Shown here one piece after another: positions 7,890 to 41,704 of a stretch of DNA of 64,000 bases. The notes beneath the pieces were generated by a model. That model saw only the letters and a program-made list of their open reading frames with translations. It was not told where the DNA came from and did not search any database. How positions within the stretch are numbered: position 1 is the first letter of the stretch; the number at the start of each line of letters is the position of its first letter. Source of the DNA: Minisyncoccota bacterium (GTDB lineage: Bacteria; Patescibacteriota; Minisyncoccia; Phycocordibacterales; CAJQIN01); NCBI GenBank assembly GCA_905478465.1, contig CAJQIN010000002.1, forward strand, positions 88,312-152,311. The letters run 5' to 3'. The position numbers and the translations under genes are program-made.

Positions 7890-8083
7890 ACACAAAAGAT
7901 ACTCTTATGTAATCTCAACAATACTATCACACAATCCTTTTAAGACAACAACCTTATGTGATGCATTAAAAGTATCCTGATTAAAGCATGAAGTTTCATG
8001 AGAAACCTTGATATAGCATTCTAGACAACGCTCTGCCAAATTGGCACAATCTAAGTTTACTACCTAATCCAATAAAAACCCAG

Positions 8084-8132
8084 TTTCACGTGAAATACAC
8101 CTCATATACGTTTCACGTGAAACGTATATGAG
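8084..8132. repeat. two copies of the palindrome TTTCACGTGAAA, the second embedded in a perfect 32-bp palindrome (8101-8132)
   Basis: ctcatatacgtttcac|gtgaaacgtatatgag reads identically on both strands. Confidence 0.8.
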
Positions 8133-8430
8133 CTTTTGGCCAAAAATACAAAGCTTTTTCGTTTTTAAGGCTAAATAGAGCCATATTTTAAAGTCAAAGA
8201 CGTTTATAGACACTTCTCAAAAAATGTCTTTTATACACATATCCCCATACTTATCCCCAGTTTTCCACAAAAAACCTTATTTTAGGGGATATATAAAGGA
8301 AAAAGTCTTTTTATATGACCCTTAAAAGAATCACTCATCAAACACCTTCAGACAAATTAATGAAAGATAAAGCACTCTATAGAGGGATATGTTTAAGACA
8401 AAAAATAACCCAAAAGGGTTATTTTTTTAG

Positions 8431-8501
8431 TGCGGGATGGGGGAATCGAACTCCCATGTACTGCTTGGAAGGCAGTCATTCTACCATTAAATTAATCCCG
8501 C
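8431..8501 (-). tRNA. tRNA-Gly (anticodon TCC), CCA not encoded
   Basis: Manual fold: acceptor GCGGGAT/ATCCCGC, anticodon arm ACTGC-CTTCCAA-GCAGT, T-loop TTCGATT. Confidence 0.85.
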
Positions 8502-8535
8502 ATGAAAACTATTCTAACATAAAATATCTACAATG

Positions 8536-8608
8536 TGCGCCTGGCAGGAGTCGAACCCACAACCCCTTGTTCCGAAGACAAGTGCTCTATCCATTGAGCT
8601 ACAGACGC
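8536..8608 (-). tRNA. tRNA-Arg (anticodon TCG), CCA not encoded
   Basis: Manual fold: acceptor GCGTCTG/CAGGCGC, D arm GCTC-AATGGATA-GAGC, anticodon arm CTTGT-CTTCGGA-ACAAG, T-loop TTCGACT. Confidence 0.8.
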
Positions 8609-8622
8609 CCTGAATAAGTATA

Positions 8623-9300
8623 CTATAGTTTTTTCCTGGAAGAAGCAACTAACATACTCTGAAAAAACTTCATCCTCCACAAAAACCTCACTCCTGACAG
8701 CTCTACGACCAAACAACCCTTATAATTAGGTCTTTTTTTAACCTTTAACCCGCTCGGCTTATAGATGCTTTTCTGAAACCTTGAAGAGGGAATATGTGTC
8801 AATTCTGACCAATATGTCTCCCATTCTTCATGAGCATATGGTGCATGTAGGTACAATCGACACTTCATATTTTCTTCATTTACATACATATATCTCTTTA
8901 TCCACAGAACCATAAAACATATCATGTCTGGATCTGAATTAATAAAACGAAAATTACTCGATCTTTTTGCCCCCTCAGCCCAATACAGAGCTACTCCTGC
9001 AATAAACATAGGGTCATCTTTATACTTATCAAACTCTTTTTGTGCTTCTGTAAACTCCAACTGCTCTCGAATTAAACGATTCTGCCTATTAGCACTCGCC
9101 GCTTTTATTCTACCCCGTGAGATATTTGAATCTGTTCTTTTTTTCAACACATCCTTTTCATCTTCAGTAAGAGGCAGATCTTTCAACCAATTAGAAAGAG
9201 TACTTTTAGAAACATCCACATGTTCCAAAATCTCTTTATAACTAGCGCCTTTTCTACGCATTTCAATAGATTTTTGTTTTTCTTGAACCTTGCTTTTCAT
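8623..9300 (-). CDS. helix-turn-helix DNA-binding protein, function unknown
   Basis: N-terminal HTH (GASYKEILEHVDVSKSTLSNWLK), similar to transposase/resolvase-type HTHs. The rest is not recognisable. Lies next to the tRNA cluster. Confidence 0.5.
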   Translation of the reverse strand: MKSKVQEKQKSIEMRRKGASYKEILEHVDVSKSTLSNWLKDLPLTEDEKDVLKKRTDSNISRGRIKAASANRQNRLIREQLEFTEAQKEFDKYKDDPMFIAGVALYWAEGAKRSSNFRFINSDPDMICFMVLWIKRYMYVNEENMKCRLYLHAPYAHEEWETYWSELTHIPSSRFQKSIYKPSGLKVKKRPNYKGCLVVELSGVRFLWRMKFFQSMLVASSRKKL

Positions 9301-9361
9301 ACTGTATAACTATAATACTCTGTTCATTGTACACAAAACAAAAGTACTGTACAATGCTGAT

Positions 9362-10846
9362 ATGGACAAAAAACCCACTAATACAGCCTCTTTTGAGGTT
9401 CCTATAGAAGTTTCACGTGTAACGGCACTGCTAAAAAACGCAGGTTTTTCAGGCTATCTTGTTGGCGGATGTGTTCGCGACCTTATTCTACAGAGAGAAC
9501 CTAATGACTGGGATATCACCACAAATGCTACACCAGAGAAGATTCAGGAAATATTTCCTGACTCAGTATATGAAAACACCTTTGGTACAGTAGGGGTAAA
9601 GACTCGTTCTGAGAATCTAAAGGTGTCTATCATTGAAATAACCCCTTACCGAACAGAAAGTACCTACACAGACAACCGTCACCCTGACACTGTCTCATTT
9701 AGTACAAAACTTGAAGATGATTTACTTCGTAGAGACTTCACAATAAATGCGCTCGCATATGATGTGGAGACAGGTGAGATTATCGATCTTTATAACGGAC
9801 AAAAAGATTTAAAGGACAAAATAATTAGAACAGTAGGGGATCCTGACGAAAGATTCACTGAAGATGCGCTACGTCTACTACGTACTATTCGTTTTTCAGC
9901 ACAACTAGGCTTTAGCATCGAAGAATCTACAAAAAAATCACTTATTTCAAACGCCCACCTACTCAAAAACATCTCAGCTGAGAGAATCAGGGATGAATTT
10001 ATTAAAATCGTAGATTCTCCTGACCCAGAACAAGCTCTTAATGTTTCTTGTGAAACTGGAATACTTGAACAATTTATCCCTGAATTACCCCTAATGAAAG
10101 GAATAGATCAGGGTGGAGTTCATAAGTATGACGTATGGGAGCATCTATTAAAAAGTCTCACTCATGCCCAAAAGAAAGGGTATCCGTTACACGTGAAACT
10201 TGCAGCATTGTTCCATGATATAGGAAAACCCAAAACTCGTAGAGCTGGCGCAAAGAAGGCCTGGACCTTCTACGGACACGAGGTGATTGGGGAGAGAATG
10301 ACAAAAAGTATCCTGGAAAGACTAAAGTTTTCACGTGAAACTACAGAAACTGTTACCAAATTAGTTCGCTGGCACATGTTTTTCTCAGATACTGAGGAAA
10401 TTAGCCATACAGCAATACGAAGAATGATTCGAAATGTCGGAAAAGATCTAATCTGGGACTTAATGAATGTTCGAGTGTGTGACCGTATGGGTATGGGAAG
10501 ACCCAAAGAAGAGCCTTATAGACTTAGAAAGTACCATTCTATGATAGAAGAAGTGATGAGTGACCCTGTATCTGTCGGAATGCTCAAGATAGATGGAAAT
10601 ACCCTAATGAGTGAGTTTCATGTGAAACCGGGACCAATTATAGGAAATATACTCCACGCTCTTCTGGAACAGGTTATTGAAGATCCAACCAAAAATACAG
10701 AGGAATACCTCAAAGAACAAATACCCGCTCTTCTAAAACTTTCAGAAGAAGAACTAAAGAAACTTGGTACAGCTGGCAAAGAAACAAAAAACCAAGCAGA
10801 AGAAAAAAAAGTAAAAGGTATTCGCAAGAAACACTGGGTAGAGTAG
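9362..10846 (+). CDS. cca: CCA-adding tRNA nucleotidyltransferase with C-terminal HD domain
   Basis: Pol-beta nucleotidyltransferase head (GGCVRDLIL...DWDITT) and an HD motif (HDIGK). An in-frame start at 9290 is possible but would overlap the divergent gene. Confidence 0.85.
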   Translation: MDKKPTNTASFEVPIEVSRVTALLKNAGFSGYLVGGCVRDLILQREPNDWDITTNATPEKIQEIFPDSVYENTFGTVGVKTRSENLKVSIIEITPYRTESTYTDNRHPDTVSFSTKLEDDLLRRDFTINALAYDVETGEIIDLYNGQKDLKDKIIRTVGDPDERFTEDALRLLRTIRFSAQLGFSIEESTKKSLISNAHLLKNISAERIRDEFIKIVDSPDPEQALNVSCETGILEQFIPELPLMKGIDQGGVHKYDVWEHLLKSLTHAQKKGYPLHVKLAALFHDIGKPKTRRAGAKKAWTFYGHEVIGERMTKSILERLKFSRETTETVTKLVRWHMFFSDTEEISHTAIRRMIRNVGKDLIWDLMNVRVCDRMGMGRPKEEPYRLRKYHSMIEEVMSDPVSVGMLKIDGNTLMSEFHVKPGPIIGNILHALLEQVIEDPTKNTEEYLKEQIPALLKLSEEELKKLGTAGKETKNQAEEKKVKGIRKKHWVE

Positions 10847-10905: not shown

Positions 10906-11309
10906 TAAAGAAAAATTTCCACACATCTCAACCTTTTAAAAGTTATCCACAGATTTGTCCTTTTGTTTTATCCTAAAGGACATTATAATAAATGCCAGAT
11001 ACAGATATTGTCTTTTAGAGATTCCCACTTTATTCTAAAGGACGATGATTATGTTTGTTCTTTGTTTTCTTTTATTGAATTAGCTACTCAATAGAAAATA
11101 TAAAAGTATCGGGTTTCTCTGGTTTGAATGTCAAACCACCTAAGTCTCCTGGTGTATATCCACAATATTCCTTCCTCATAACTATTTTTTGATACACACC
11201 TAATAACTTACTCTGCGGTTTGCAGACGAGAGTCCGCCCAATACATAGAACAAATCGCCTGACGTACCAAAGAACGTCTAGGCGATTTTTTATTTTCTAA
11301 AAATTATTT

Positions 11310-20658: not shown

Positions 20659-23600
20659 ATGCAACACCTCGAAGGACTCAATCCAGCACAGAAAGAAGCC
20701 GTTACCACCACAGAAGGTCCGGTACTAATTGTAGCAGGAGCTGGATCAGGGAAAACTCGAGTTATCACTCACCGTATCGCACACATTGTTTCTCAAGGAA
20801 TCGAACCTGCCAATATTTTAGCGGTAACTTTCACAAATAAAGCGGCTAAAGAGATGCGTGAACGAGCAATGAAACTCCTTAGCAATGACTTCGCAACAGG
20901 ATCCACACCTTTCATTAGCACTTTCCATGCGCTCGGTGTCTTTCTTCTTCGTTCTCATTACAAAGAACTAGATATTCCAAAACATTTCACTATTTTTGAC
21001 CGAGATGATTCAAAAAAAGCTGTCAAACAAGCACTAAAGAAAAAAGGACTAGACCCAAAAGAATATGACCCTGGGAAAATTCTTAACTCCATCTCAAAAC
21101 AAAAAGGGGACTCTATTACCGTAGAAGAATTCACCGCCAATGCCTCAAGTTACTATGAGGAACTGATAGCAGACATTTGGAATGAGTACGAACGTATTCT
21201 ACAAAAAAATAGAACTTTTGATTTTGATGATCTTCTTCTAAAATCTGTATCATTTCTACGAAAACATAAAGATATCAGAGAAAAATATCACGGTATTTGG
21301 AAATACGTACATGTTGATGAGTACCAAGATACCAACCAAGTACAATATGATTTAATAAAACTACTAACAAATACTGATAACAATATATGTGTTGTGGGAG
21401 ATGGTGACCAATGCCTAATTAAAGGAACAAAAGTTACCTTAGCAGAAGGAAAAACTATAAATATTGAAAAAATAAAAAAAGATGATCTTGTTATGTCTAA
21501 CTACGGAAGTGGTGATTTCAGACCCGCAAGAGTGACTTCAGTACTCAAGAAAAAAACAAATAGTACTCTAGTACGAATACACACATCAAAAGGGAGAACA
21601 ATTGAAAGTACTCCCGAGCACATACATTTTGCAGGATATCGTCTAGGTGATACCCCGCAAAGCTATGTAACATATCTCATGTACAAAAAAAGTATTGGTT
21701 GGAGACTTGGTGTATCACAGATATATACAAATGGTGGCAAAAATACCATCGCTGGTTTTGCACAACGATCAAATCAAGAACACGCCGATGCTCTATGGAT
21801 AGTAGGGACATATACAACACCAAATGAAGCTCGTGTACACGAATACACACTGTCACTTCAATACAAAATTCCAACACTACCTTTTGTGGCGAGAAAAGGC
21901 GGAAGCACGAATGGATATGTACATGACCAAAAAATCATCAATAAAATCTTCTCATCATTTAATACAGATCAAGGTGCAAAAAAATTATTAAAAAGTCTTG
22001 GTTTATTAGAAAAATATCCTCATCACCGTCCTCAGTCACACAATAGCAATAGAAGAAATATCATCATCACACTTTGTGGAGATAGAAGAGGATCTACGCC
22101 TATGCACAGGATGAGTATGGTAGGGAATGATGTTTTAGGAAAAAAAATACTTACATCTATAGGTCTCTCTGTACGACCAGCTAAAAAAGGATCTAAAAGC
22201 TGGAGAGTCGAATCCTCATACGGCAACTACGAAGATGTTTTAGGTATCGCCGAACGTATAAACAAAGCTTTTCCCGAAGCTTCTATTATTCAAAATGCTC
22301 GCTTAGAAAAAAATAAAAAAGATGCCCGTAACAAAAACTCTTTATCCTTTATGCCAGCAGGATCTATTGTTCCCGGCATGGTGTTATTCAATGATAAAGG
22401 TGGGTACGACATTGTAAAAAAGGTAGAAGTAACAAAAAAAAGTCCTCAAACCGTATACGATCTAAATATAGAAAAAACCCACAACTACATAGCTAATGGT
22501 ATTGTTACTCATAACTGTATTTATAGCTGGAGAGGAGCGAGTATTCGCAACATCCTCACCTTCGGAGAAGATTTCTCAGACACCAAAACAATTCTTCTTG
22601 AAGAAAACTACCGTTCAACAAAAAACATTCTTGGAGCAGCTAATGAGATTATCAAAAAAAATAATAACCGTGTAGACAAAAAACTTTTTACCCAAAATGA
22701 TGTTGGTGAAAAAATAGAATGTATTGAAGGATGGTCAGAAGGGAATGAGGCAGAAAAGGTTGCTCAAAAAATAAAAGAATTGCTAGCAAACGGAACAAAT
22801 CCTAACGAGATTGTTATGTTGTATCGTGCCAATTTCCAATCCCGAGTTCTTGAAGAATCATTACTTCGTGCAGGAATTTCATATCAACTACTTGGAACAA
22901 AGTTCTTTGACCGAAAAGAAGTAAAAGATACTTTGTCTTTCATCCGAGCCGCACTCAACCCAGATAACTTGGTAGATATTGCCCGCATAATAAACACACC
23001 AGTACGTGGAATAGGAAAGGTAACTATTGCAAAAGTAATTAATGGCGAAGAAGAGACTCTAACAGGAAGAGCTCGAGAGAGTGTCCAAAAATTTAGAACT
23101 ATCCTCCAAAAAATACACAGCGAGAGCACTAACATGCTACCAAGTGAGCTTGTTCGTTTTACCTTCAAGGTAAGTGGGCTCGAAGAGTCATTCAAGTCTC
23201 AAGGAGAAGATGGGATTGAACGCTTTGAAAACGTACAAGAACTTGTGAGTCTGGCAACACGATACGACACCTACCCCGAAGAAGATCGAATTGGAGAATT
23301 TCTCTCAGATGTAGCCCTTGCCTCAGACCAAGATGAACTCATGAAAGATGGCGGGGAAGCGGTAAAGATGATGACAGTCCACGCATCAAAAGGACTCGAA
23401 TTCGATACTGTATTTATTACAGGCCTTGAAGAAGGATTATTCCCACACGAAGGAATGGGTGATGCAAAAACTGATGACGAAGAAGAACGAAGGCTTTTTT
23501 ATGTAGCAGTTACTCGAGCTAGAAAGAAAATTTTCCTTTCTTATGCAAACTCACGAACTATCTACGGAACAACAACACTAAGAGCACCTTCCCAGTTTAT

Positions 23601-23709
23601 TGCTGATATAGGAAATGAATTCTTGGAAGCAACTGCACCCGTGGAACTGGCTGACATTGATACCCAAAGAAAAAAAGGTATTAGTAGTATTTTTGATATT
23701 GATTTTTAA
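20659..23709 (+). CDS. UvrD/PcrA-type superfamily-1 DNA helicase, interrupted in-frame by an intein
   Basis: Walker A AGAGSGKT, motif II VDEYQDTN, and motif III split as VVGDGDQ | intein | CIYSWRGA. C-terminal helicase motifs are present (VHASKGLEFD, YVAVTRAR). The extein is about 648 aa. Confidence 0.85.
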   Translation: MQHLEGLNPAQKEAVTTTEGPVLIVAGAGSGKTRVITHRIAHIVSQGIEPANILAVTFTNKAAKEMRERAMKLLSNDFATGSTPFISTFHALGVFLLRSHYKELDIPKHFTIFDRDDSKKAVKQALKKKGLDPKEYDPGKILNSISKQKGDSITVEEFTANASSYYEELIADIWNEYERILQKNRTFDFDDLLLKSVSFLRKHKDIREKYHGIWKYVHVDEYQDTNQVQYDLIKLLTNTDNNICVVGDGDQCLIKGTKVTLAEGKTINIEKIKKDDLVMSNYGSGDFRPARVTSVLKKKTNSTLVRIHTSKGRTIESTPEHIHFAGYRLGDTPQSYVTYLMYKKSIGWRLGVSQIYTNGGKNTIAGFAQRSNQEHADALWIVGTYTTPNEARVHEYTLSLQYKIPTLPFVARKGGSTNGYVHDQKIINKIFSSFNTDQGAKKLLKSLGLLEKYPHHRPQSHNSNRRNIIITLCGDRRGSTPMHRMSMVGNDVLGKKILTSIGLSVRPAKKGSKSWRVESSYGNYEDVLGIAERINKAFPEASIIQNARLEKNKKDARNKNSLSFMPAGSIVPGMVLFNDKGGYDIVKKVEVTKKSPQTVYDLNIEKTHNYIANGIVTHNCIYSWRGASIRNILTFGEDFSDTKTILLEENYRSTKNILGAANEIIKKNNNRVDKKLFTQNDVGEKIECIEGWSEGNEAEKVAQKIKELLANGTNPNEIVMLYRANFQSRVLEESLLRAGISYQLLGTKFFDRKEVKDTLSFIRAALNPDNLVDIARIINTPVRGIGKVTIAKVINGEEETLTGRARESVQKFRTILQKIHSESTNMLPSELVRFTFKVSGLEESFKSQGEDGIERFENVQELVSLATRYDTYPEEDRIGEFLSDVALASDQDELMKDGGEAVKMMTVHASKGLEFDTVFITGLEEGLFPHEGMGDAKTDDEEERRLFYVAVTRARKKIFLSYANSRTIYGTTTLRAPSQFIADIGNEFLEATAPVELADIDTQRKKGISSIFDIDF
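21412..22515 (+). other. intein (368 aa, class 1: Cys1 ... His-Asn, +1 Cys) inside helicase motif III
   Basis: Block A CLIKGTKV, block B GRTIESTPEHIHF, blocks F/G VYDLNIEKTHNYIANGIVTHN, then CIYSWRGA resumes the extein. No LAGLIDADG or HNH motif is recognisable in the central region. Confidence 0.8.
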
Positions 23710-27377: not shown

Positions 27378-28190
27378 ATGAAAATAAAACAAACTGTACT
27401 CATAGTAACCATTGTCATAATTTCTTTCGTGGGCATATTTTTATACATACGCTCTGTAGAATTTGGAGGAAAAACACAATATACACAAAAAGAAACCATT
27501 CATCAAACCAACTCTCAAACAGCACAAAGAGTTTCTTCAACTGAGGTTATAGACGCTTTTATTGAAACTAATGAGGACCTCAATGTTCTTGATGTTCTTC
27601 ATAGTATAAATAACTCTCTGACCGAAAGATTTCTCACTTATTATGATGAAAAAATCGGCCTTGAAACTCAAGGTGTCGACATACCTACCCGAGAAAAAGT
27701 TCTTCGTGATTTTCTAGTACAAGAAAATTTTGAAAACATACTCAAAAATTACCCCTTATACACAACAACAGACCTGAGAACTGTTGCCGCATCAGAAAAT
27801 ACATTCGCTCAATACAAAAAAGGTTTCGAAACAAGTGTTGCTTTGAATTTAAAAATATCTGAACTTGAAAATGAATTGTCTGTGTTTAGAAAAGCTCAAA
27901 CGATGACAAATAAACAACATAAGGAAATTGAAATACAAAAATTAACAGGCATTCAAAAAAATTATACTGCCCTTAGAGACTCTTTACTTCTTTTGTATGT
28001 CCCATCAGATGCTTTAATTATTCACCTTGATCTAGTTAATTCAATCAATTTTATTATAAATCGTATTGAAGGTATGCAAACATTAATCGCAGATCCTCTT
28101 CGTGCGCAAATATATGCCAGTTCATACGAAAAAGATGCTCACATTTTTATTGATTCTTATACAAAATTAACATCTTATTTATCTAAATAA
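27378..28190 (+). CDS. hypothetical membrane-anchored protein (first gene of the secretion-system-like cluster)
   Basis: N-terminal TM helix. No recognised domain. Confidence 0.4.
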   Translation: MKIKQTVLIVTIVIISFVGIFLYIRSVEFGGKTQYTQKETIHQTNSQTAQRVSSTEVIDAFIETNEDLNVLDVLHSINNSLTERFLTYYDEKIGLETQGVDIPTREKVLRDFLVQENFENILKNYPLYTTTDLRTVAASENTFAQYKKGFETSVALNLKISELENELSVFRKAQTMTNKQHKEIEIQKLTGIQKNYTALRDSLLLLYVPSDALIIHLDLVNSINFIINRIEGMQTLIADPLRAQIYASSYEKDAHIFIDSYTKLTSYLSK

Positions 28191-28263
28191 TACACAACAT
28201 GTTAGTAGGGTATTTATTAAAAACAAGCTACAATAATATGTATAATCATATAATATTCAAACT

Positions 28264-29325
28264 ATGAAATATTCCTATACACAAAATATATCTACCTACT
28301 TTTGTTCCATACTTGTTATATCACTCTTCATAACCCCGTCTTTTTCTTTTGCCCAGCAAAAAGTTCCTGTTATTGATGAAAGTCACATAGAAGTAAGTCA
28401 GCAAATTTTGAATGTCCTCACAACTCTAATGGAAAAAGAGCTACAAAAAGATCCATTAGAAGAGGCTGCAGCAAAACAAGAGCTCGCAGATAGCACTCAA
28501 GAAGAGATTGAATATATCCAAGAAGGGTACAAAGGATATCTTCAAAACGCCTATCTTCCTGGAATAGGGGATATCGACACTTCTTTTTTTGAAACAGACC
28601 TAGAGGAATTCTATAACAGCGTTAGAGAAAGTGAATTTAATCGCTTCATGGAAGAAAACTTTGGGTATGATTTTAACTCTGATGAAACCACTTTTAACCC
28701 TGATCCAAATAATGAACATCCTGGACAAAATCTTAATGTCATAGGAACAGCTTTACGCGCAAAATACGACAACACTTCTGAAGGATACACACTTGATACT
28801 GTCACAGGAGGATCTGAAAATACCCAAGCTTTTCTAGAAGGAGACTTTAGCCAAGGAGGCTGGGATGCGTGGTACTCACTCTCTCAAAACCCTGAAAATA
28901 ATGCCTACGGACAATACTTCCAAGCATCAGAGTCTCTCGACAATCAAATATCAAAAAATATTGTTATTGAGGAGCAGAAACTAGAATGGGGGCAAGGATT
29001 TCATGCCTTAGAAAAAGCTGACGGAACCATTACAACTCCAAGTGTTTTAAACCTAAACCAACTCAACCAAGCAATTTCAACATGTAACAATTCCCTCGAA
29101 GCTATCGATGAATACACAGGTGAATTACTACCTGATAGTCTTGGTAATATGTGTGATGCCATTCGCGAGGGACTAAACAGTACCACAGGACTTCTCGAAA
29201 CAAATTTTGATTTTGCTGAACTGTTTGACTTAGATTTTAGTGGTCTTGTACAGGATTTATTACACGGAGTTGATATGGCAGGCAGTGTTCTTAACCATGT
29301 TGATTTAGGAGGTATCGGCCTTTAA
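28264..29325 (+). CDS. hypothetical secreted protein
   Basis: Signal peptide ending ...SFSFAQQ. Acidic, no recognised domain. Confidence 0.4.
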   Translation: MKYSYTQNISTYFCSILVISLFITPSFSFAQQKVPVIDESHIEVSQQILNVLTTLMEKELQKDPLEEAAAKQELADSTQEEIEYIQEGYKGYLQNAYLPGIGDIDTSFFETDLEEFYNSVRESEFNRFMEENFGYDFNSDETTFNPDPNNEHPGQNLNVIGTALRAKYDNTSEGYTLDTVTGGSENTQAFLEGDFSQGGWDAWYSLSQNPENNAYGQYFQASESLDNQISKNIVIEEQKLEWGQGFHALEKADGTITTPSVLNLNQLNQAISTCNNSLEAIDEYTGELLPDSLGNMCDAIREGLNSTTGLLETNFDFAELFDLDFSGLVQDLLHGVDMAGSVLNHVDLGGIGL

Positions 29326-29334
29326 AAAAATATT

Positions 29335-31527
29335 GTGACCAAAGGAATTAGAAACAGCTTTATACTTAGTATCATATTCTGCATAGGATTTATTTTTGCT
29401 GTACCACAAATGGCACATGCCCAAACAAACCAGTCTTCACCTTGGCAATCAACTACACTTACAAATGAAACTGTAGATATTGCAAATTGTGGTTCTGACT
29501 TTACTTGTCATGGGAAAAAAATAATAGCCTACACCATAATTTTTACAGGGAACACCCTCCTTAGAATATTCTCTTGGATCACATGGATAGGCGGAACTTT
29601 CCTTAATACAGTACTCTTGGTCACGGTGGTAAACATGTCAGGTATTGTAGAAAAGACGTCTGCCATTCAAGATGGATGGAAAATCATTAGGGATCTGTCA
29701 AATATTGCCTTTATCTTTGTACTTCTGTATATATCAATATCAACCATATTAGATTTAGGGGTTAACACAGGAAAAGCTTTACGTAGTGTTGTTATAGCTG
29801 CTTTATTTATAAACTTCTCCTTCTTTTTTGCAGCAACAATTATTGACGTATCCAACATACTAACCTTACATCTCTACGACCAAATTCTTACTCCAAGTAA
29901 TCAGTCTGCAACTGGTACGTCTAGTGACGTTAATAGCGACACAGACCCAAATAGCAGGTCTAGCGTAGGATTATCCGGAAAAATGCTTGAGAAACTAGGT
30001 GTTCCCACACAAGTATTTAGTTTCCCAGATGATGCTGAGTTAAATAATACATGGAATAATCTAGGTACTTTTTTTGTCAAAATACTTGGCGGTATCTTCC
30101 TCCTTATTGTTTCTTCTTTTATTTTTATTGCAGCCGGTATCATGTTCTTGTACCGTTTTGTTATTTTCGTATTTCTTCTTATATTTTCCCCTATTGCCTT
30201 TTTAGGAATGATTTTGCCTCAAACAAAAAGTACAGCCTCTGCTTGGTGGAAATCTCTCACGGACAATGCTCTTTTTGCCCCGGTTTACATGGTACTTACT
30301 TTTATTGCATTAGAAATAGTTGGATCTCTTCATACACAAATATCTGCTGTTGCTAATTCAAGTAATCAAAAAATACTCCTTGATCCAACCGCTTTTTTAA
30401 ACTTTGTTATCGTTGCAGCTTTTCTGCTCGGATCACTAATTATCTCTAAAAAATATGCAACAGCAAGTGCAGGGACAGCAACATCTCTAGCCGGGAAAGC
30501 TGTCTTTGGAAAATACGGACTAGGTGGAGCAAGTAGATTTGCAGGAAGACGAATTGGCGCCGGTATCAAAGAAAACAAGTATATAAATAACCTTGTTGAT
30601 GGTGAACGAAGTAATGTCGCAGGACGCTGGGCAGGACGTTTAGCATTACGCACAGGAGATAAGATTGAAAAAGGAACCTATGATGCACGAAAAACACTTA
30701 ACTCCTTAGGAAGCTCTCTAGGTGAAAAGAATGCATTTGGCAAAAGTGTAAGTAGAAAAGATCTTGATAAAAACCAAAAAGACAAAGAACAAGCAATAAT
30801 TGACGCTATGGCACCAACCCAACACACCATCAGTCAGGCCGAGGCAGACCTTACCGAATCAAGGAAAAAATATATTCAAATAAAAGACACCTTCGACAAA
30901 GACCCTATCACCAAAAAAATTAATACAAAAATTGAAATAGCCGAAAAAGAATTAATGGAGGCAAAGAAAGCTCTAGGAAGTGAAGATGATATGAAAAAAC
31001 TTGCGCAAAAAGAAAGATCATCTGGGAACATCAAAGAAGCAAGAAATATTGAAGAAGTTTTTGCAAAGAAAAAATCTACCTTAGCAACCATGGAAGCAGA
31101 TCTCTCTTCATATAGAAAAGAGAAGTCCGGCCATAAAAAAACTTTAGGGGTAACAGAGGCGGAAGAACAACTGGAGCCGTATCAGAAAAAGATGGATACT
31201 CTAAAAGGTGTCGATGATAAAGAAGCCCTCAAACGTGCTAAAAATAATACTAAACAAGCGGAAGATGAGGATGACAAAGCGTATAAAAAACGTGTTGAGA
31301 AAGAAGCTCGAGGTTTACAACAAAAAAGCCAACAAGAAGCAAGGACCACGCGCCATATTGAAGATGCAGAAAACTCAATGTTCCAACCTAAACGCGAACG
31401 AGAAAATCGAGTTGCACTTCTTAAAAAAATGACTAAAAAGCAAAGCGCAGCAGATCTTCTAGAAGGATTTATTAAAGAAACATCATCAAGTAGTAGCCCA
31501 GCCAAAAATCCTGATGATGAAAATTAA
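29335..31527 (+). CDS. large polytopic membrane protein with charged coiled-coil C-terminal tail (possible VirB6/PrgH-like channel component)
   Basis: Signal peptide, at least 6 predicted TM helices, and a K/E-rich 250-aa C-terminus. The VirB6-like role is assigned from context only. Confidence 0.4.
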   Translation: MTKGIRNSFILSIIFCIGFIFAVPQMAHAQTNQSSPWQSTTLTNETVDIANCGSDFTCHGKKIIAYTIIFTGNTLLRIFSWITWIGGTFLNTVLLVTVVNMSGIVEKTSAIQDGWKIIRDLSNIAFIFVLLYISISTILDLGVNTGKALRSVVIAALFINFSFFFAATIIDVSNILTLHLYDQILTPSNQSATGTSSDVNSDTDPNSRSSVGLSGKMLEKLGVPTQVFSFPDDAELNNTWNNLGTFFVKILGGIFLLIVSSFIFIAAGIMFLYRFVIFVFLLIFSPIAFLGMILPQTKSTASAWWKSLTDNALFAPVYMVLTFIALEIVGSLHTQISAVANSSNQKILLDPTAFLNFVIVAAFLLGSLIISKKYATASAGTATSLAGKAVFGKYGLGGASRFAGRRIGAGIKENKYINNLVDGERSNVAGRWAGRLALRTGDKIEKGTYDARKTLNSLGSSLGEKNAFGKSVSRKDLDKNQKDKEQAIIDAMAPTQHTISQAEADLTESRKKYIQIKDTFDKDPITKKINTKIEIAEKELMEAKKALGSEDDMKKLAQKERSSGNIKEARNIEEVFAKKKSTLATMEADLSSYRKEKSGHKKTLGVTEAEEQLEPYQKKMDTLKGVDDKEALKRAKNNTKQAEDEDDKAYKKRVEKEARGLQQKSQQEARTTRHIEDAENSMFQPKRERENRVALLKKMTKKQSAADLLEGFIKETSSSSSPAKNPDDEN

Positions 31528-32128
31528 CAATATGGAAACACAAAAAGAAATACACAACATAATAGGTACCCAATTAGAACAACTTCCTGAAAATGTTCGT
31601 TTGTACATTGAAAGCAAGGTCTGGGACACAGCCCTAGAAGAACTCCTAATAAAAGATGTAATTACTCACAAATATTCTGAAGAAATAAAGTATGAGATAT
31701 TCTTTTATCTTCTTGGACTTCGAGATAAAAATGAAACAATCAAAAAAATACAAGATATACCAGAAGAAACTGAATCTCTTAATAAAAATATAGATTTTTT
31801 CTCAGTTATTCCAGACACTATCCAAAAAGAACTTGCCGACATATTGAGCCCTGAAGAAACTCCCGTATCCGACGAAAGATTAGGAGGTGTTGAAATAACA
31901 CATGAATCACAAACAAAAAATGAAGAAGATATAGTACCTGAACGAGAAAATGTAATGCAAGGAATTGAACACCCAGAAAACATAACTTCACAATCAGAAA
32001 CAATATCTAATCCTATTGGATCCAAATTAAAAAAAACTACTGAAAGTAGCACCGTACCACTAGGAGATAACCCTAGTAGAAGAGGGTACGCAGAAGGACA
32101 AGACCCTTACAGAGAAGCCTTAAACTAA
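31514..32128 (+). CDS. hypothetical acidic protein
   Basis: 204-aa ORF that overlaps the upstream gene by 14 nt. Confidence 0.4.
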   Translation: MMKINNMETQKEIHNIIGTQLEQLPENVRLYIESKVWDTALEELLIKDVITHKYSEEIKYEIFFYLLGLRDKNETIKKIQDIPEETESLNKNIDFFSVIPDTIQKELADILSPEETPVSDERLGGVEITHESQTKNEEDIVPERENVMQGIEHPENITSQSETISNPIGSKLKKTTESSTVPLGDNPSRRGYAEGQDPYREALN

Positions 32129-32236
32129 TTACCAATACTTAAACCTACTACATACCCATAACAAGCTTTGCTTGTTATGGGTATGTAGTTCATAATTAAG
32201 GTAGTTAATATTTCTCTAAAAAAATAAACACACCCT

Positions 32237-32665
32237 ATGCGCTATCAAGTACCACAATTTATAGAAGTTGAAGACAAAATATTTGGACCCCTAACCTTAA
32301 AGCAATTTATTTATCTAGGTGGATCTATTGGTATTATTGTGGTTATTTTTAGTTTTACACCAAGAATTCTAGCCTTTATTCTATCTACCCCCGTTGTTGC
32401 TCTTGGTCTTGCTTTAGCATTTTATAAAGTAAACAATAAGCCTTTTCTAGAAATGATAGAGGCATTTTTTCACTATAATACAAATGGAAAACTATATATA
32501 TGGCATAAAACTGCTAGAAAAATCAAAAAAGGGTCTGAGCAAACAGACAGAAGAACTTTAGAAGTTCCTAAACTTGCAAATAGTAAGCTTAAAGACCTTA
32601 CATGGACCCTTGATGTAAAGGAACAAAACAATCCCATTACAAAAGAAACTAATCCACCTGTATAA
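32237..32665 (+). CDS. PrgI/VirB3-like small membrane protein
   Basis: VPQFIEVEDKIFGPLTLKQFIYLGG followed by two TM helices. It sits immediately upstream of a VirB4-like ATPase, as in Gram-positive conjugative T4SS. Confidence 0.5.
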   Translation: MRYQVPQFIEVEDKIFGPLTLKQFIYLGGSIGIIVVIFSFTPRILAFILSTPVVALGLALAFYKVNNKPFLEMIEAFFHYNTNGKLYIWHKTARKIKKGSEQTDRRTLEVPKLANSKLKDLTWTLDVKEQNNPITKETNPPV

Positions 32666-32692
32666 AGACGTAACCTGCGTTATACTATCTAT

Positions 32693-33319
32693 ATGTCATC
32701 ACGTAATTCAAAAGCAACCCAAGATTTTATTCCTGTAGAAGAGATAAGAGATGGTGTTGCGATTCTAAAAGATGGTTCTTTGAGGTCAATTATCATGGCT
32801 TCTTCTGTTAACTTTGCCCTCAAGTCAGATGATGAAAGAACTTCTATTCTTTTTCAATTTCAAAACTTTCTTGATTCTCTAGATTTCTCTGTACAAATAG
32901 TCATCCAGTCACGTCGACTTGATATTCGACCATATCTTGCACTCCTTGAGGAACGTCAAAAGGTTCAGATGAACGACTTAATGAAAATGCAAACACGAGA
33001 ATATATTGGTTTCATAAAAAAATTCACAGAAAGTGTCAGCATCATGACAAAAAACTTCTTCGTAGTAGTATCTTATTCTCCCTCTACACTAGGATCTAAA
33101 AAAGGTGGTTTTATGAAAAAGAAATCTTCAAAAACTAAAGACGTAAATTTTTCTTTTGAAGAAAATTTGAGTCAATTAAACCAGAGAATGTCTGTTGTTG
33201 AACAAGGTCTTTCACGAACAGGTGTACGTGTTGCTCACTTAGGAACAGAGGAGGTGACGGAACTTTTTTATAAATTATTTAATCCTGGAGAGACTGAAAA
33301 ACCAATTAAAATGCAATAA
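32693..33319 (+). CDS. VirB4-like ATPase N-terminal domain (separate ORF or frameshifted part of the next gene)
   Basis: 208 aa. It ends 1 nt before the ATG of the ATPase-domain ORF, and the combined length (about 811 aa) equals a full VirB4. Confidence 0.4.
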   Translation: MSSRNSKATQDFIPVEEIRDGVAILKDGSLRSIIMASSVNFALKSDDERTSILFQFQNFLDSLDFSVQIVIQSRRLDIRPYLALLEERQKVQMNDLMKMQTREYIGFIKKFTESVSIMTKNFFVVVSYSPSTLGSKKGGFMKKKSSKTKDVNFSFEENLSQLNQRMSVVEQGLSRTGVRVAHLGTEEVTELFYKLFNPGETEKPIKMQ

Positions 33320-33320
33320 T

Positions 33321-35132
33321 ATGGGAATTTTTGATTTTTTAAAGAAAAATAATGACAAAGACTTTGATATAAGCACAATTATGCCTGACAACATCTACGA
33401 GGCTAATGCACTTGAATTAAAGGATATTCTTGCACCAAGTGCACTCGAGATCACCCCAAGAGAGATACGTCTTGGAGATAAAGTGTTACGAAGTTTTTTT
33501 GTTATTTCATATCCGAGATTTCTTGCAGAAAGCTGGTTTGCACCAATCATCAATCTGGACAAAATGTTTGATATCACTATCCATATTCATCCTATTGAAA
33601 CATCTATTATTCTCAGAAAATTTCAAAAAAAAGTAGCCGAAATACAAAGTCAGATTAATGAAAGGGAAGAGAAGGGACTTGTTCGAGATCCAAAACTAGA
33701 TACTGCCTATCAGGACCTAGAGGACCTCAGAGACAAACTCCAGCAAGCACAAGAGCGTCTTTTTGATGTAGGACTATACATCACCCTTTATGCAGATAAT
33801 ACAGAAGAATTAGACAAAATTGAATCTGAAATTAAATCTATTCTAGAATCAAAACTGGTTTATGTTAAACCGGCTTTATTTCAACAAGAACAAGGTTTCA
33901 AATCAACTTCACCTATTGCAACAGACCTTTTAGGAGTTCATACGAAATTAAATTCCTCTCCTCTATCAAGTATTTTTCCTTTCATCTCATTTGACCTTAC
34001 ATCAGACAAAGGAGTTCTTTATGGTATCAACCGTCACAACTCTAGTCTTGTGCTTTTTGACAGATTCTCTCTTGAAAACTACAACTCAATTACTTTCGCA
34101 AAGTCTGGTTCCGGAAAATCCTATGCAACAAAACTTGAACTCCTGCGTTCTCTTATGTTTGATACAGAAGTCATTATCATAGACCCTGAAAATGAATATG
34201 AATACATGGCAGAAGCGGTAGGGGGTAGATTCTTCAAAATATCACTTAGTTCTCAACACCACATCAACCCCTTTGACCTACCTATTCCCCGAGAAGATGA
34301 ATCCCCAGCAAGTGTTCTGCGCTCAAACATTATTCACCTTGTAGGACTTTTCCGTATTATGCTCGGAGGCCTTACAGCAGAAGAGGATGCTATTGTTGAT
34401 CGAGCCATCACTGAAACATATGCTTTGAAAGATATTTCTCCAGACTCTAATTTCGCAGATATTGATGCCCCTCTTATGTCTGATTTTGAATTAGTACTAT
34501 CTGGTATGGAAGGCGGAGAGTCTCTTGCACAACGTCTCAGCAAGTACACCAAAGGTACTTGGGCAGGCTTTATTAACAAACCATCGAATGTAGATCTAGA
34601 TAAGAAATTTATTGTATTTTCTATTCGAGATATGGAAGACGAACTCAAGCCCGTAGCCATGTACATCATTACCCACTTCATCTGGAATGCTGTTAGAAAA
34701 GACCTCCGAAAACGCCTTCTTGTAATAGATGAGGCTTGGTGGATGATGAAATCTGAAGACACAGCATCTTTCTTGCTCAATGTGGCAAAAAGAGGACGTA
34801 AATACTATTTAGGACTTCTAACCATCACACAAGATGTCGGCGACTTCCTAAACTCTCCTTACGGACTTCCTATTATCACCAACTCTTCAATGCAACTTTT
34901 ATTAAAACAATCTCCAACCGCCATCGATAAACTACAGGAAGTATTCAATCTGACAGACGAGGAAAAATATCTACTTCTTGAATCTCAAATAGGGGAGGGC
35001 ATATTCTTCGCAGGACTTAAACATGTAGCTATAAAAATCATTGCTTCCTACACAGAGGACCAAATTATTACCTCAGATCCATCTCAAATCTTAGCAATTC
35101 AAAAAGCCAAAAGAGAGTTAGAGCAATCATAA
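33321..35132 (+). CDS. VirB4/TrbE/PrgJ-like type IV secretion ATPase (C-terminal ATPase domain)
   Basis: Walker A FAKSGSGKSYATK, IIIDPENEY, Walker B LLVIDEAWWMM, and RKYYLGLLTITQDVGDF. This is the VirB4 (AAA-like/DUF87) signature set. Confidence 0.85.
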   Translation: MGIFDFLKKNNDKDFDISTIMPDNIYEANALELKDILAPSALEITPREIRLGDKVLRSFFVISYPRFLAESWFAPIINLDKMFDITIHIHPIETSIILRKFQKKVAEIQSQINEREEKGLVRDPKLDTAYQDLEDLRDKLQQAQERLFDVGLYITLYADNTEELDKIESEIKSILESKLVYVKPALFQQEQGFKSTSPIATDLLGVHTKLNSSPLSSIFPFISFDLTSDKGVLYGINRHNSSLVLFDRFSLENYNSITFAKSGSGKSYATKLELLRSLMFDTEVIIIDPENEYEYMAEAVGGRFFKISLSSQHHINPFDLPIPREDESPASVLRSNIIHLVGLFRIMLGGLTAEEDAIVDRAITETYALKDISPDSNFADIDAPLMSDFELVLSGMEGGESLAQRLSKYTKGTWAGFINKPSNVDLDKKFIVFSIRDMEDELKPVAMYIITHFIWNAVRKDLRKRLLVIDEAWWMMKSEDTASFLLNVAKRGRKYYLGLLTITQDVGDFLNSPYGLPIITNSSMQLLLKQSPTAIDKLQEVFNLTDEEKYLLLESQIGEGIFFAGLKHVAIKIIASYTEDQIITSDPSQILAIQKAKRELEQS

Positions 35133-35139
35133 AATAATT

Positions 35140-35661
35140 ATGGAATCAATAAAACGACCAAGGTCTTTAACAAAAAAGAACTTACCCACAAAGGTATCTA
35201 ACAAAGAAAATCAACCTAATACACACATAAACAGTCCTAAAAAAGAAGTATCTTATCGAATATCATGGACCACAGCTTTTTTAATGATATCCCTGACCAT
35301 CGTCTTCGACCTAACTGAAATTATCATCGACTGGCTAGGTAATCTAACAGCAGCTTTTGGACTTGGTTTATTATTCTGGGGTCTCAATATTGGTGGTGTT
35401 ATTTTTATGGGTCTAACTTTTTTTGTCTGGTTTAAAATAAAAAATATTCCCATATTCACAAGTCCTAAAAGAATAGCTACGTCAGCGATTACTTTTATAG
35501 GAGAAATGATTCCTGTTATTAACAACCTTCCGGGATGGACAATAGGTATTATTGTAATAATTATAATAAGTAGATCTGAAGATAGGGGTGGTATCATAGG
35601 GAAAGCAACATCTATAACAAAAAACCTCAAAGGAAAAGCTTCTGTGGGGAAAAAAGGTTAA
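35140..35661 (+). CDS. hypothetical polytopic membrane protein
   Basis: 3-4 predicted TM helices. No recognised domain. Confidence 0.4.
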   Translation: MESIKRPRSLTKKNLPTKVSNKENQPNTHINSPKKEVSYRISWTTAFLMISLTIVFDLTEIIIDWLGNLTAAFGLGLLFWGLNIGGVIFMGLTFFVWFKIKNIPIFTSPKRIATSAITFIGEMIPVINNLPGWTIGIIVIIIISRSEDRGGIIGKATSITKNLKGKASVGKKG

Positions 35662-35691
35662 AGAAATAGAAAATTACGCTATACTATATAT

Positions 35692-36399
35692 ATGAAATAT
35701 TTTTTCTATATTTTTGTTTTTAGTTTTATATTTGCATCAAATATTCCGTATATTTATGCTCAAGAAACAAATTCTTCTGTTAATATTGTTTGGTATGCAA
35801 ACGACTCTTATGTCCCAAATTTTTACAAAGGAAAAGCTCTTCGTTCAGAGTACACAAGCACTACATTAACGGCAATACCTCAAATAAACTATCAAGGTAC
35901 TCTTATTCAAAATTCTGAATTAAATTTTACATGGAAAGTAAACGGAAAAACTTTACAAAACTCAGGATTAGGTAAAAACCAAATAACAATCAAGAATTCT
36001 CTAACATCAAACTCTCCTGAGGTCAGCATTGTTGTCACATCTACGCGCACAGGTCTTTCTGCACAATCATCTTTACAACTACCTGAGTATGAATCTAGAG
36101 TACTACTCTATGAAAACGATCCTCTTTTAGGAATTTTATATAATAAAGCCCTTCTTTCAACATTTTCTGTACAAAATAAAGAAGTAACCCTAAAAGCTAT
36201 ACCGTACTACTTCACAAAAGATGCTCTAGGCTATACATGGAAAATAAATGGAAACACTTTTTCATCAACAGCTCTTGAAGACGGTATCACTCTCAGAAAA
36301 GATGATGCGTCTTCAGGAAGTTCTCAATTAAGTATTTTTGTAAAATCTTTGAAAAATATTTTACAAAAAGAAACCTCTAATCTTACTATCACTTTTTAA
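35692..36399 (+). CDS. hypothetical secreted protein
   Basis: Signal peptide. Beta-rich with repeated WK(V/I)NG(K/N)T segments. Confidence 0.4.
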   Translation: MKYFFYIFVFSFIFASNIPYIYAQETNSSVNIVWYANDSYVPNFYKGKALRSEYTSTTLTAIPQINYQGTLIQNSELNFTWKVNGKTLQNSGLGKNQITIKNSLTSNSPEVSIVVTSTRTGLSAQSSLQLPEYESRVLLYENDPLLGILYNKALLSTFSVQNKEVTLKAIPYYFTKDALGYTWKINGNTFSSTALEDGITLRKDDASSGSSQLSIFVKSLKNILQKETSNLTITF

Positions 36400-36401
36400 A
36401 A

Positions 36402-37037
36402 ATGAAAAAAATACTATTTCTTATAACATTATGGAGTCTGCCAATTTTGTCTTTTGCCCAAGGGACTGCTGGTAATGCTCAACAATATGTCCCCCTTGTA
36501 TCAGACCTTCCTGAAATAATTACAAGTAGTTCTTCTTTTGGAGATTATCTTACTGGTTGGTTTCAACTAATCCTTGGCCTTGTCACCGTCCTTGCAGTTA
36601 TATGGATCACATTAGGAGGTATCAAATATATGTCAACAGATGCTTACTCAGGGAAATCAGAAGGGAAAAAAATGGTTCAAAACGCTATTATAGGACTTCT
36701 TTTAGCGGGAGTATCTTGGCTTATTCTATTCACTATTAATCCCGCTATTTTAAATGTGAATCTTAATTTTACACAACAAGAATCTCAAGATTTTTCAGTA
36801 ACAACAAATATACCTACAGACTCAGGCTCTCTGGAAACCTACTATTGTTTTGTTTGGTATAAAGAAACTTTTTATTTCAGAAACCTGACAGACCCTGCCG
36901 AATCTTGTTTTGTAGATAAAAAAGATTGCACAAAAGCTCGTGCAATAAAAAGAGCTGAATCAGTTAACATGGCCACTTCCCATTGTGCCGAAGCAGAAAG
37001 AGACAGCGCAGCATTATATAAAAACTCAATACAATAA
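36402..37037 (+). CDS. VirB2/TrbC-like pilin candidate with Cys-containing C-terminal extension
   Basis: Signal peptide, then two hydrophobic helices separated by a short charged loop (the TrbC/VirB2 topology), plus an 80-aa C-terminal region with 4 Cys. Confidence 0.4.
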   Translation: MKKILFLITLWSLPILSFAQGTAGNAQQYVPLVSDLPEIITSSSSFGDYLTGWFQLILGLVTVLAVIWITLGGIKYMSTDAYSGKSEGKKMVQNAIIGLLLAGVSWLILFTINPAILNVNLNFTQQESQDFSVTTNIPTDSGSLETYYCFVWYKETFYFRNLTDPAESCFVDKKDCTKARAIKRAESVNMATSHCAEAERDSAALYKNSIQ

Positions 37038-38269: not shown

Positions 38270-38300
38270 AAAGAAAAACACTTCAGACATGAAGTGTTTT

Positions 38301-40142: not shown

Positions 40143-41501
40143 TTGTTAATTATGAATGAAAAACAACTTTGGGATAAAGTATTGGTAGAGGTGGAGCTTA
40201 GTATTTCTAAACCAAACTTCAATACTTGGTTTAAAGATACATTCATCTCAAAAATTGACGGGGGAATGGTACATGTAGGTATTCCAAATGCTTTTGCACG
40301 TGAATGGCTTTCAACTAAATACCATAGCTTCTTGTTAAAAACTCTTCGCACACTCTCATCCGAGGTTAGGGGAATTGAATATTGTGTATCAAAACTAAAC
40401 CCACACCAGAAACAAGAGGCAGAAATTCATACAAATAACACTGAATCCAAAAACACCCTGCCTCTAGAAGAACACTATGTAAATAAAGAGAATAACCTTA
40501 ATCCACGATACACATTCGACACTTTTATTGTTGGACCATTTAATGAACTTGCTCACGCTGCAGCTCAAGCCATTGTGGAACGTCCTGGTATTGTCTACAA
40601 CCCTTTATTTATTTATGGAAATACCGGACATGGAAAAACCCACCTCATACAATCGATAGGGAACCAAATAAAAAAAGTTTTCGACAAGAAACAAGTATTC
40701 TATGTAACCTCTGAAAAATTTGCTCTCGACTACATAAACTCTGTCCAAACAGGAAAGGTAAATAATTTTAAAGAAAAATATCGAAAATATGACGTCCTCA
40801 TCATGGATGATATTCAATTTTTCGCAGGAAAAGAAAAATCTCAAGAAGAATTATTCCATCTTTTCAACTATCTCTACGACAATAACAAGCAAATTATCTT
40901 TTCTTCAGATAAACACCCTAATTACATAAACAATCTAGAAGAAAGACTTAAATCACGCTTTGGAGCGGGTATGATTGTTGATATTCCTACACCAGACCTT
41001 GAGTCTCGTGTGGCTATTCTAAAAAAGAAAGCTCTTGCAAGTAATATCATCCTCAAAGATGAGGTTATACAATTCCTTGCAAGTAATATCACCACAAACA
41101 TTCGAGAATTAGAGGGTGTTCTAAACACTCTGTCCTGCCAAACAGACCTCAAACAAAGAGATCTCAATATAAATGAGATTAAATTCCTCATTAAAGACAA
41201 TACCCAAAGACCAAAAACAAAATCTCCACAAGAAGTTGTTAAACTTATCTCTGATTATTACAACGTAGAGGAATCTGTTATCTATGAAAAAACTCGTCGA
41301 AAGGAAATCATTAAACCCCGACAAATTATCATGTATATTCTTCGTGAAGATTTCAACATCTCATACCCATCGATAGGGCAGAAGCTGGGGGGTCGTGATC
41401 ACACAACAGTTATCCACTCTTGTGAGAAAATAAAGCTCGAAGTTCAGAAGGATGATGTGTTGGCACAGGAGATAAATCAGATACGTTCGATGTTGGTATA
41501 A
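40143..41501 (+). CDS. dnaA: chromosomal replication initiator protein DnaA
   Basis: AAA+ Walker A GNTGHGKTHL, Walker B LIMDDIQF, and a C-terminal DNA-binding domain (GGRDHTTVIHSCEKI). Confidence 0.95.
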   Translation: MLIMNEKQLWDKVLVEVELSISKPNFNTWFKDTFISKIDGGMVHVGIPNAFAREWLSTKYHSFLLKTLRTLSSEVRGIEYCVSKLNPHQKQEAEIHTNNTESKNTLPLEEHYVNKENNLNPRYTFDTFIVGPFNELAHAAAQAIVERPGIVYNPLFIYGNTGHGKTHLIQSIGNQIKKVFDKKQVFYVTSEKFALDYINSVQTGKVNNFKEKYRKYDVLIMDDIQFFAGKEKSQEELFHLFNYLYDNNKQIIFSSDKHPNYINNLEERLKSRFGAGMIVDIPTPDLESRVAILKKKALASNIILKDEVIQFLASNITTNIRELEGVLNTLSCQTDLKQRDLNINEIKFLIKDNTQRPKTKSPQEVVKLISDYYNVEESVIYEKTRRKEIIKPRQIIMYILREDFNISYPSIGQKLGGRDHTTVIHSCEKIKLEVQKDDVLAQEINQIRSMLV

Positions 41502-41704
41502 GATGTGGATAGGGTTGGGGATAGAGTTGGATAAAAAACAGTTAATACAAAAGTTATCCACAAACAAAAGACTTATCCACAATTCATAAGAATTTATTTT
41601 CCCGAGAAACATTACAAACAAAAGACATTCTTAAGAAATCCACATATACACAGGTATAATAATAGAAGTAAGTATTTTAATAAGAATATAAATAATAACT
41701 ACAT
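41502..41704. promoter_or_regulatory. putative oriC: DnaA-box cluster plus AT-rich unwinding region between dnaA and dnaN
   Basis: Perfect TTATCCACA at 41554-41562 and 41573-41581. Near-matches TGTGGATAG (41504-41512) and AATCCACAT (about 41637-41645). A >50-bp A+T tract (41651-41704) follows. Confidence 0.6.

Follow-up and report, generated by a model that had tools for sequence, protein, structure and literature searches.

The parS sequence is a near-universal centromere element of bacteria. Chromosomal parS sites follow the 16-mer consensus TGTTNCACGTGAAACA and are bound by ParB/Spo0J (PMC7022226). The number of copies per species ranges from 2 to 22, with 5 in Caulobacter, 21 in Streptomyces coelicolor, and 22 in Myxococcus xanthus (table in PMC7022226). 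A cluster of palindromes that resemble this consensus is described here in a metagenome sequence from a Minisyncoccota bacterium (contig CAJQIN010000002.1). The palindromes lie beside and within cca, the gene of the CCA-adding tRNA nucleotidyltransferase. The window, that is, the whole stretch of DNA presented, is 64 kb in length; it was analyzed together with two 10-kb extensions of the same 231-kb metagenome scaffold, scaffold_10 of ENA ERZ23498542, giving 83 kb in total. The relatives of its cca gene place the window in the Paceibacteria (Parcubacteria), within the Patescibacteria, or candidate phyla radiation (CPR). The palindromes are very probably parS sites that make up the centromere of this chromosome, with ParB as the predicted binding protein.

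When compared to the Spo0J/parS type of Bacillus subtilis, the window sites are alike in their 14-bp palindromic core (0-1 mismatch), in their proximity to the origin, in being several per chromosome, and in the location of some of them inside coding sequences. The first B. subtilis parS is itself inside the spo0J coding sequence. Similarly, the clusters of multiple parS sites in Caulobacter, S. coelicolor, and M. xanthus present several consensus or near-consensus sites within a few kb near the origin of replication (oriC), with degenerate copies around the strong ones; the window has 6-8 sites in 2.6 kb, four or five of them in one housekeeping gene. In contrast to the chromosomal ParABS type, the window sites are anchored at a tRNA cluster and cca rather than beside parAB, with no par genes within 83 kb, and this strain does not retain the outer T/A of the 16-mer.

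Another palindrome of this kind is the Noc-binding site (NBS, ATTTCCCGGGAAAT), which is bound by the ParB paralogue Noc. These sites have a central CCCGGG and are spread round the chromosome, avoiding the terminus. While the window sites are alike as a related palindrome predicted to be bound by a ParB-family protein, their center is CACGTG and they occur at a single locus. An identity as NBS was rejected, as every copy with at most one mismatch has a CACGTG or CATGTG core.

A search of the window for TTTCACGTGAAA with at most one mismatch returned six matches against 0.30 expected from shuffled sequence, and none of the 100 shuffles reached six. The matches start at 8084, 8111, 9411, 10187, 10329, and 10616; three are exact 12-mers (8084-8095, 8111-8122, and 10329-10340) and the remaining three have one mismatch each. 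With up to two mismatches, the 14-mer GTTTCACGTGAAAC has eight matches against 0.24 expected, all within 7993-10628. The probability that eight random positions of the 64-kb window would fall within 2.6 kb is ~1.6e-9. Neither the remaining ~61 kb of the window nor 19 kb of added flank had any further copies with up to two mismatches. The six copies reported in the initial annotation are all present where it had placed them, and the sequence 8101-8132 is, as it had claimed, a perfect 32-bp palindrome, which cannot be extended. It had not found the motif elsewhere in the 64 kb, which is borne out here; two weak copies, at 7993 and 10043, had been overlooked. The sites are listed below without strand.

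8110..8123: putative main parS, with a perfect 14-bp core GTTTCACGTGAAAC (16-mer cGTTTCACGTGAAACg), at the center of the palindrome 8101-8132
8083..8096: putative second intergenic parS, GTTTCACGTGAAAT, 1 mismatch, 27 bp left of the main parS
9410..9423: putative parS in cca, GTTTCACGTGTAAC, 1 mismatch, encodes VSRVT, codon phase 0
10186..10199: putative parS in cca, GTTACACGTGAAAC, 1 mismatch, encodes PLHVKL, codon phase 2
10328..10341: putative parS in cca, TTTTCACGTGAAAC, 1 mismatch, encodes FSRET, codon phase 0
10615..10628: putative parS in cca, GTTTCATGTGAAAC, 1 mismatch in the central CG, encodes EFHVKP, codon phase 2
7993..8006: weak parS-like sequence, GTTTCATGAGAAAC, 2 mismatches, of doubtful function
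10043..10056: weak parS-like sequence in cca, GTTTCTTGTGAAAC, 2 mismatches, encodes VSCET

The six strong sites differ by 0-1 mismatch from the 14-bp core of TGTTNCACGTGAAACA and by 2-3 mismatches from the full 16-mer. In the relatives described below, the intergenic site gives the logo tGTTTCACGTGAAACa, in which the outer consensus positions are restored to yield the full 16-mer.

Chromosomal parS sites are expected to be near the origin, and the position of the origin can be read from the window.

40143-41501: dnaA, by Pfam
41705-42802: dnaN, by Pfam
41410..41704, without strand: probable oriC, the AT-rich dnaA-dnaN spacer, in which there are four DnaA boxes, two of them perfect and two imperfect

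The boxes are at 41410, 41504, 41554, and 41573, and the genes rnpA, yidC, and jag stand beside dnaA-dnaN, preceding them. Over the 83 kb, the cumulative GC skew traces a clean V that bottoms out at ~41 kb. The boxes and the skew minimum together locate the origin at dnaA-dnaN; the motif cluster is therefore 31-33 kb into the left replichore, an origin-proximal location. Two weak parS-like or NBS-like palindromes were observed at the origin itself, ATTTTCCCGAGAAACA at 41596-41611 in the dnaA-dnaN spacer and GTTTCAACCGAAAC at 41993-42006 early in dnaN. Each has 3 mismatches to the 14-mer core, and they are the only matches with up to three mismatches outside of the cluster.

The locus was compared with 80 species-level Paceibacteria cca loci (cca 56-62% identical), each taken with 10 kb on either side where the contig allowed, for a total of 1.2 Mb. 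Sites in the relatives were considered strong with at most one mismatch and weak with at most three. Among 94 strong copies, 93 are inside cca or no more than 2 kb upstream. This corresponds to a density of 0.31 per kb in cca and 0.44 per kb in the 2 kb upstream, as opposed to 0.001 per kb in 0.96 Mb of flanks, a ~300-400-fold enrichment. For weak copies, the enrichment across this stretch of 3.5 kb is 13- to 70-fold. At least one site is present in 60/80 loci, most with one and a few with three to five; since the relatives mostly have 1-3 sites at the locus, the six to eight of the window are at the high end. The upstream copy sits in a syntenic non-coding gap that runs from tRNA-Pro(tgg) to tRNA-Gly/tRNA-Arg(tcg)/cca, and in several relatives (L071, L072, L077, and L082) it is the CATGTG variant that the window has at 10615..10628. 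The initial annotation had named two patterns as speaking against a set of protein-binding sites, namely a motif that is common and evenly distributed and one that close relatives lack at the corresponding positions; in the window and in the relatives' loci, neither pattern was observed. Its suggestion of such a set is supported by the match to the parS core, the proximity to the origin, and the conservation in relatives, and a centromere-like role, which it had listed as an option, is the one that a canonical parS core near the origin, conserved at the locus in relatives, would indicate.

The gene that hosts four strong copies and one weak copy is as follows.

9362..10846, plus strand: cca, CCA-adding tRNA nucleotidyltransferase with an HD domain (Pfam PolyA_pol, PolyA_pol_RNAbd, HD, tRNA_NucTran2_2)

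The ATG at 9362 is a more likely start than the TTG at 9290 because the 494-aa product from 9362 is on record exactly. The four sites with at most one mismatch in the window cca compare with 0.23 after synonymous resampling from the codon usage of the window, and with 0.32 when the gene's own synonymous codons are permuted. None of 2000 replicates of the synonymous randomization reached four. Across the cca genes of the 80 relatives, the synonymous-codon test gave 37 sites against 2.2 expected. The position aligned to 9410..9423 is parS-like (up to three mismatches) in 39/80 relatives. At the position aligned to 10328..10341, the same site was present in four relatives, which also encode FSRET. 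Most relatives have unrelated peptides at the aligned in-gene positions (e.g., YPTKI for the FSRET of the window). Since the peptides vary among relatives, the in-gene sites are not a by-product of a conserved peptide. It is the DNA motif and not the peptide that is selected in cca, and this constrains the protein. The peptides given earlier for the in-gene copies (VSRVT, PLHVKL, FSRET, and EFHVKP, in two codon phases) were correct, as was the argument that no repeated peptide explains them, given their variability and the excess of four sites over 0.23-0.32 after resampling. The check on synonymous positions in cca and its homologues, which had been proposed with that argument, indicates that the in-gene copies are under selection as DNA.

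Several observations weigh against an identification as parS. The six sites of the window do not retain T1 and A16 at the two ends of the consensus, and one of these sites (10615..10628) is mismatched in the central CG. Neither parA nor parB was found in the 83 kb of scaffold, which amounts to less than 10% of a typical genome of the phylum, nor in the 1.2 Mb around the cca genes of the relatives. In the literature searched, no published description of parS, ParB, or chromosome partitioning in Patescibacteria chromosomes was found. The genome is probably ~1 Mb, as assumed from sizes typical of the phylum. The search for parA and parB consisted of scans for GERR and Walker-A motifs in six frames and of Pfam comparisons of 60 window open reading frames (ORFs) and both 10-kb extensions. 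A tblastn search of 1.44 Mb with Spo0J and Soj returned no match at E<=1. A database search with B. subtilis Spo0J gave only Bacillus proteins among the 120 matches listed and did not reach the ParBs of CPR bacteria. Since the sequence read holds no ParB gene, the cognate binder is one that we infer for this genome. Within the same phylum, entries in the supplement of PMC10633639 give the cultivated Saccharibacterium Southlakia epibionticum a ParA (SEML1_0183) and a ParB with PF02195 and PF17762 (SEML1_0184), both scored there as growth-defect or essential by transposon sequencing. To the right of dnaN in the window (44897-47190, plus strand), there are genes for an HNH endonuclease (332 aa) and a GmrSD_N/DUF262 protein (432 aa), the N-terminal domain of which has a ParB-like nuclease fold. 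This gene pair looks like a defense/restriction pair and not a partition ParB.

Based on established ParABS biology, a mechanism may be proposed. ParB (Spo0J) dimers would recognize each GTTTCACGTGAAAC core by way of their helix-turn-helix, close into clamps dependent on cytidine triphosphate, and slide to neighboring DNA, building one large partition complex over the ~2.6-kb region. Replication would start ~31 kb away at dnaA-dnaN, after which ParA and/or SMC condensin would use the complex to separate and organize the sister origin regions. Having several sites close together would make loading robust. The ancestral site in the Paceibacteria lineage may have been in the non-coding gap from tRNA-Pro to tRNA-Gly/tRNA-Arg/cca, with selection at the DNA level drawing further copies into the neighboring reading frame of cca and so dictating the local amino acids.

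Both sides of cca also carry boxes that DnaA is predicted to bind.

8231..8269, plus strand: four co-oriented DnaA-box-like 9-mers, TTATACACA at 8231, ATATCCCCA at 8239, TTATCCCCA at 8251, and TTTTCCACA at 8261
10943..10951, plus strand: perfect DnaA box TTATCCACA in the 460-bp convergent cca-xth gap, just upstream of a conserved promoter

The array of four is ~120-150 bp to the right of the main parS. When perfect TTATCCACA boxes were placed relative to the cca stop in 79 loci, 52 were at -3000 to -1500 and 56 at 0 to +500, with almost none elsewhere. The upstream box is contained in a conserved 40-bp element; a perfect box is within 400 bp of the upstream parS in 38/47 relative loci, mostly at a spacing of +133 to +165 bp (mode 163-164), and 41/42 boxes near the upstream parS share one orientation. 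The downstream box is present in 57/76 of the relatives' cca-xth gaps as compared with 0/76 control stretches.

One further neighbor has to be introduced before the alternatives are weighed.

8623-9300, minus strand: HTH_23 protein, 225 aa, with an N-terminal helix-turn-helix (HTH; PF13384, E=1.2e-6)

This protein had been put forward as an obvious candidate binder, and the palindromes would then be operators of a local regulator or of the DNA-binding part of a selfish element inserted at the tRNA cluster. Its gene does lie between the intergenic and in-gene copies, and its product begins with a helix-turn-helix; however, homologues occur in 14/80 of the related loci as compared with 60/80 for parS, and relatives keep the sites without the gene. 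The HTH resembles the N-termini of IS3, IS630, and IS1 transposases, Pfam identified no ParB-like domain, no relative of solved structure was found, and the motif equals the consensus of an unrelated, well-characterized protein family. The HTH_23 protein is thus extremely unlikely to be the binder. A palindrome-recognizing regulator other than ParB that controls cca and the tRNA genes would be in keeping with sites set round tRNA genes and a tRNA-maturation gene, with no ParB nearby. It is nonetheless highly improbable, as four operators over 1.2 kb of coding sequence, kept against codon preference, would rarely be needed, and both the exact match to the parS core and the origin-proximal position would have to be coincidence.

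Also considered was a generic genome-wide signal, whether one that serves DNA uptake, one targeted by restriction-modification or methylation, or one left behind by a mobile element, since a palindrome with a CACGTG core is typical of type II recognition sites and the adjoining tRNA genes are common integration targets. Such a signal is almost certainly not the explanation. All copies are in 2.6 kb of the 64 kb, the other ~61 kb of the window having none, and the 0.96 Mb of flanks in relatives have about one (~0.001 per kb); a motif restricted in this way to one locus can be neither a DNA-uptake sequence nor a generally over-represented motif. CACGTG is neither over- nor under-represented in the window (8 against 7.2 expected, with 5 inside the cluster), which does not fit a methylation or restriction motif, and the syntenic position across 60 species excludes mobile-element footprints. 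An iteron role, which had likewise been raised, is not tenable because the palindromes are irregularly spaced and are not direct repeats, no rep gene lies near them, and the skew shows no turn here. A last alternative is that the cca locus is an origin of replication, be it a second or an ancestral one, or that it titrates DnaA; the palindromes would then be architectural rather than a segregation centromere. In favor of it are the conserved DnaA boxes on both sides of cca in relatives, their fixed spacing to parS, and the co-oriented array at 8231-8269 in the window. This too is very unlikely. The cumulative skew falls steadily from -10 kb to +41 kb with no turn at 8-11 kb. In the relatives, where the skew of the 21-kb loci is noisy, the signs across cca in 36 loci are mixed (14 -/+, 10 +/+, 8 -/-, and 4 +/-), and the mean shift of 0.038 compares with 0.046 in the window, which has no reversal. 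The account of the Caulobacter crescentus centromere in PMC6399470 has DnaA boxes adjoining parS without making an origin. The fixed distance of the downstream box from a promoter suggests transcriptional control, which also counts against an origin. As the origin of this particular genome, the cca locus was rejected since the skew turns at dnaA-dnaN.

With parS remaining the preferred identification, the DnaA boxes may be compared to those of C. crescentus, where boxes stand beside parS without being an origin (Mera et al. 2014, as related in PMC6399470). The two loci are alike, as far as that account goes, in having boxes beside parS and away from the origin. They differ in that the spacing of box and parS is fixed here across a whole class (mode 163-164 bp) and in that a second conserved box, beyond cca, stands just before the promoter of a candidate RNA gene; for the boxes here, DnaA binding and a role in segregation are putative. 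It is conceivable, if rather doubtful, that these parts form a composite module found clade-wide round cca: the primary parS, the DnaA array ~163 bp away, the parS sites in cca, and the second box at the RNA promoter. In that case, the centromere would itself be a site of direct DnaA action, which has been proposed for Caulobacter; an entire class of ultra-small bacteria would share the arrangement, at a distance of 30 kb from the origin and away from the par genes.

The downstream box leads into a conserved unit in the cca-xth gap.

~10997-11291, plus strand: candidate structured RNA, ~280 nt, with a promoter at ~10943-10989 and a terminator at 11253-11291

In order, the unit consists of the DnaA box, a σ70-like promoter (clade consensus TTTACA, 17 bp, TATAAT), ~280 conserved nt, and an intrinsic terminator. 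It is kept in ~50 relatives, and its orientation flips between genomes. A pattern scan of 7.7-11.4 kb for σ70 promoters and terminators was not enriched over shuffles, so the statements on promoters made here are drawn solely from the clade consensus. From 21 sequences, RNAalifold predicted 27 pairs, 15 of them with compensatory changes. An Rfam search of the window, five relatives, and the conserved downstream element identified tRNAs only and no family for this RNA, making the unit a candidate for an unannotated structured RNA.

The left side of the locus varies among genomes. In 62/80 relatives, yraN (UPF0102, PF02021) stands between tRNA-Pro and the main parS (e.g., L021:8685-9300), and several degenerate sequences resembling parS occur within the gene. 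The window lacks yraN; here (7890-8082), tRNA-Pro is followed after just ~190 bp by the first strong parS. A tblastn search did not confirm the weak site at 7993 as a remnant of a lost yraN. Between tRNA-Arg and cca, the HTH_23 gene probably represents a selfish element inserted sporadically. A LAGLIDADG-like stretch (IAGVALYWAEGAK) was noted by eye in the C-terminal part of its product, and a perfect DnaA-box 9-mer occurs at 8898 inside the gene. Two tRNA genes are located to its left.

8430-8501, opposite in strand to the ORF 8315-8617 (plus): tRNA-Gly
8535-8608, opposite in strand to the same ORF: tRNA-Arg

The ORF that overlaps both (8315-8617, plus strand, 100 aa) is a gene call of the public assemblies with no family match, and is probably spurious. 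Farther to the right, a UvrD/PcrA-type helicase of 1016 aa (20659-23709, plus strand) carries an intein, identified by Pfam Intein_splicing at residues 278-619 between the N- and C-terminal domains of the helicase. Between the parS locus and oriC, a type IV secretion-like cluster (~27400-38270, plus strand) encodes TrbL/VirB6-like, PrgI, TraG/VirB4-like P-loop ATPase, and type IV secretion system pilin proteins, along with several ORFs with no family. All of the secretion-like genes point to the origin and, by the GC skew, are head-on to replication.

A parS cluster is a well-known kind of element; what lends this one some interest is that it is anchored at cca rather than at parAB, that a coding sequence has taken up sites under selection that can be measured, and that DnaA boxes are coupled to it in a fixed manner. 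From this study, a previously unexplained motif cluster may be assigned a concrete function, that of a chromosome centromere, and the predicted centromere and the probable replication origin of an uncultured CPR bacterium would both be located. The cca gene suggests that selection for parS can override the choice of codon, and even of amino acid, in a housekeeping gene. In practical terms, parS beside cca may serve as a usable marker for orienting Paceibacteria assemblies, and the fixed coupling of parS and DnaA box provides a hint of a link between initiation and segregation in these minimal cells.

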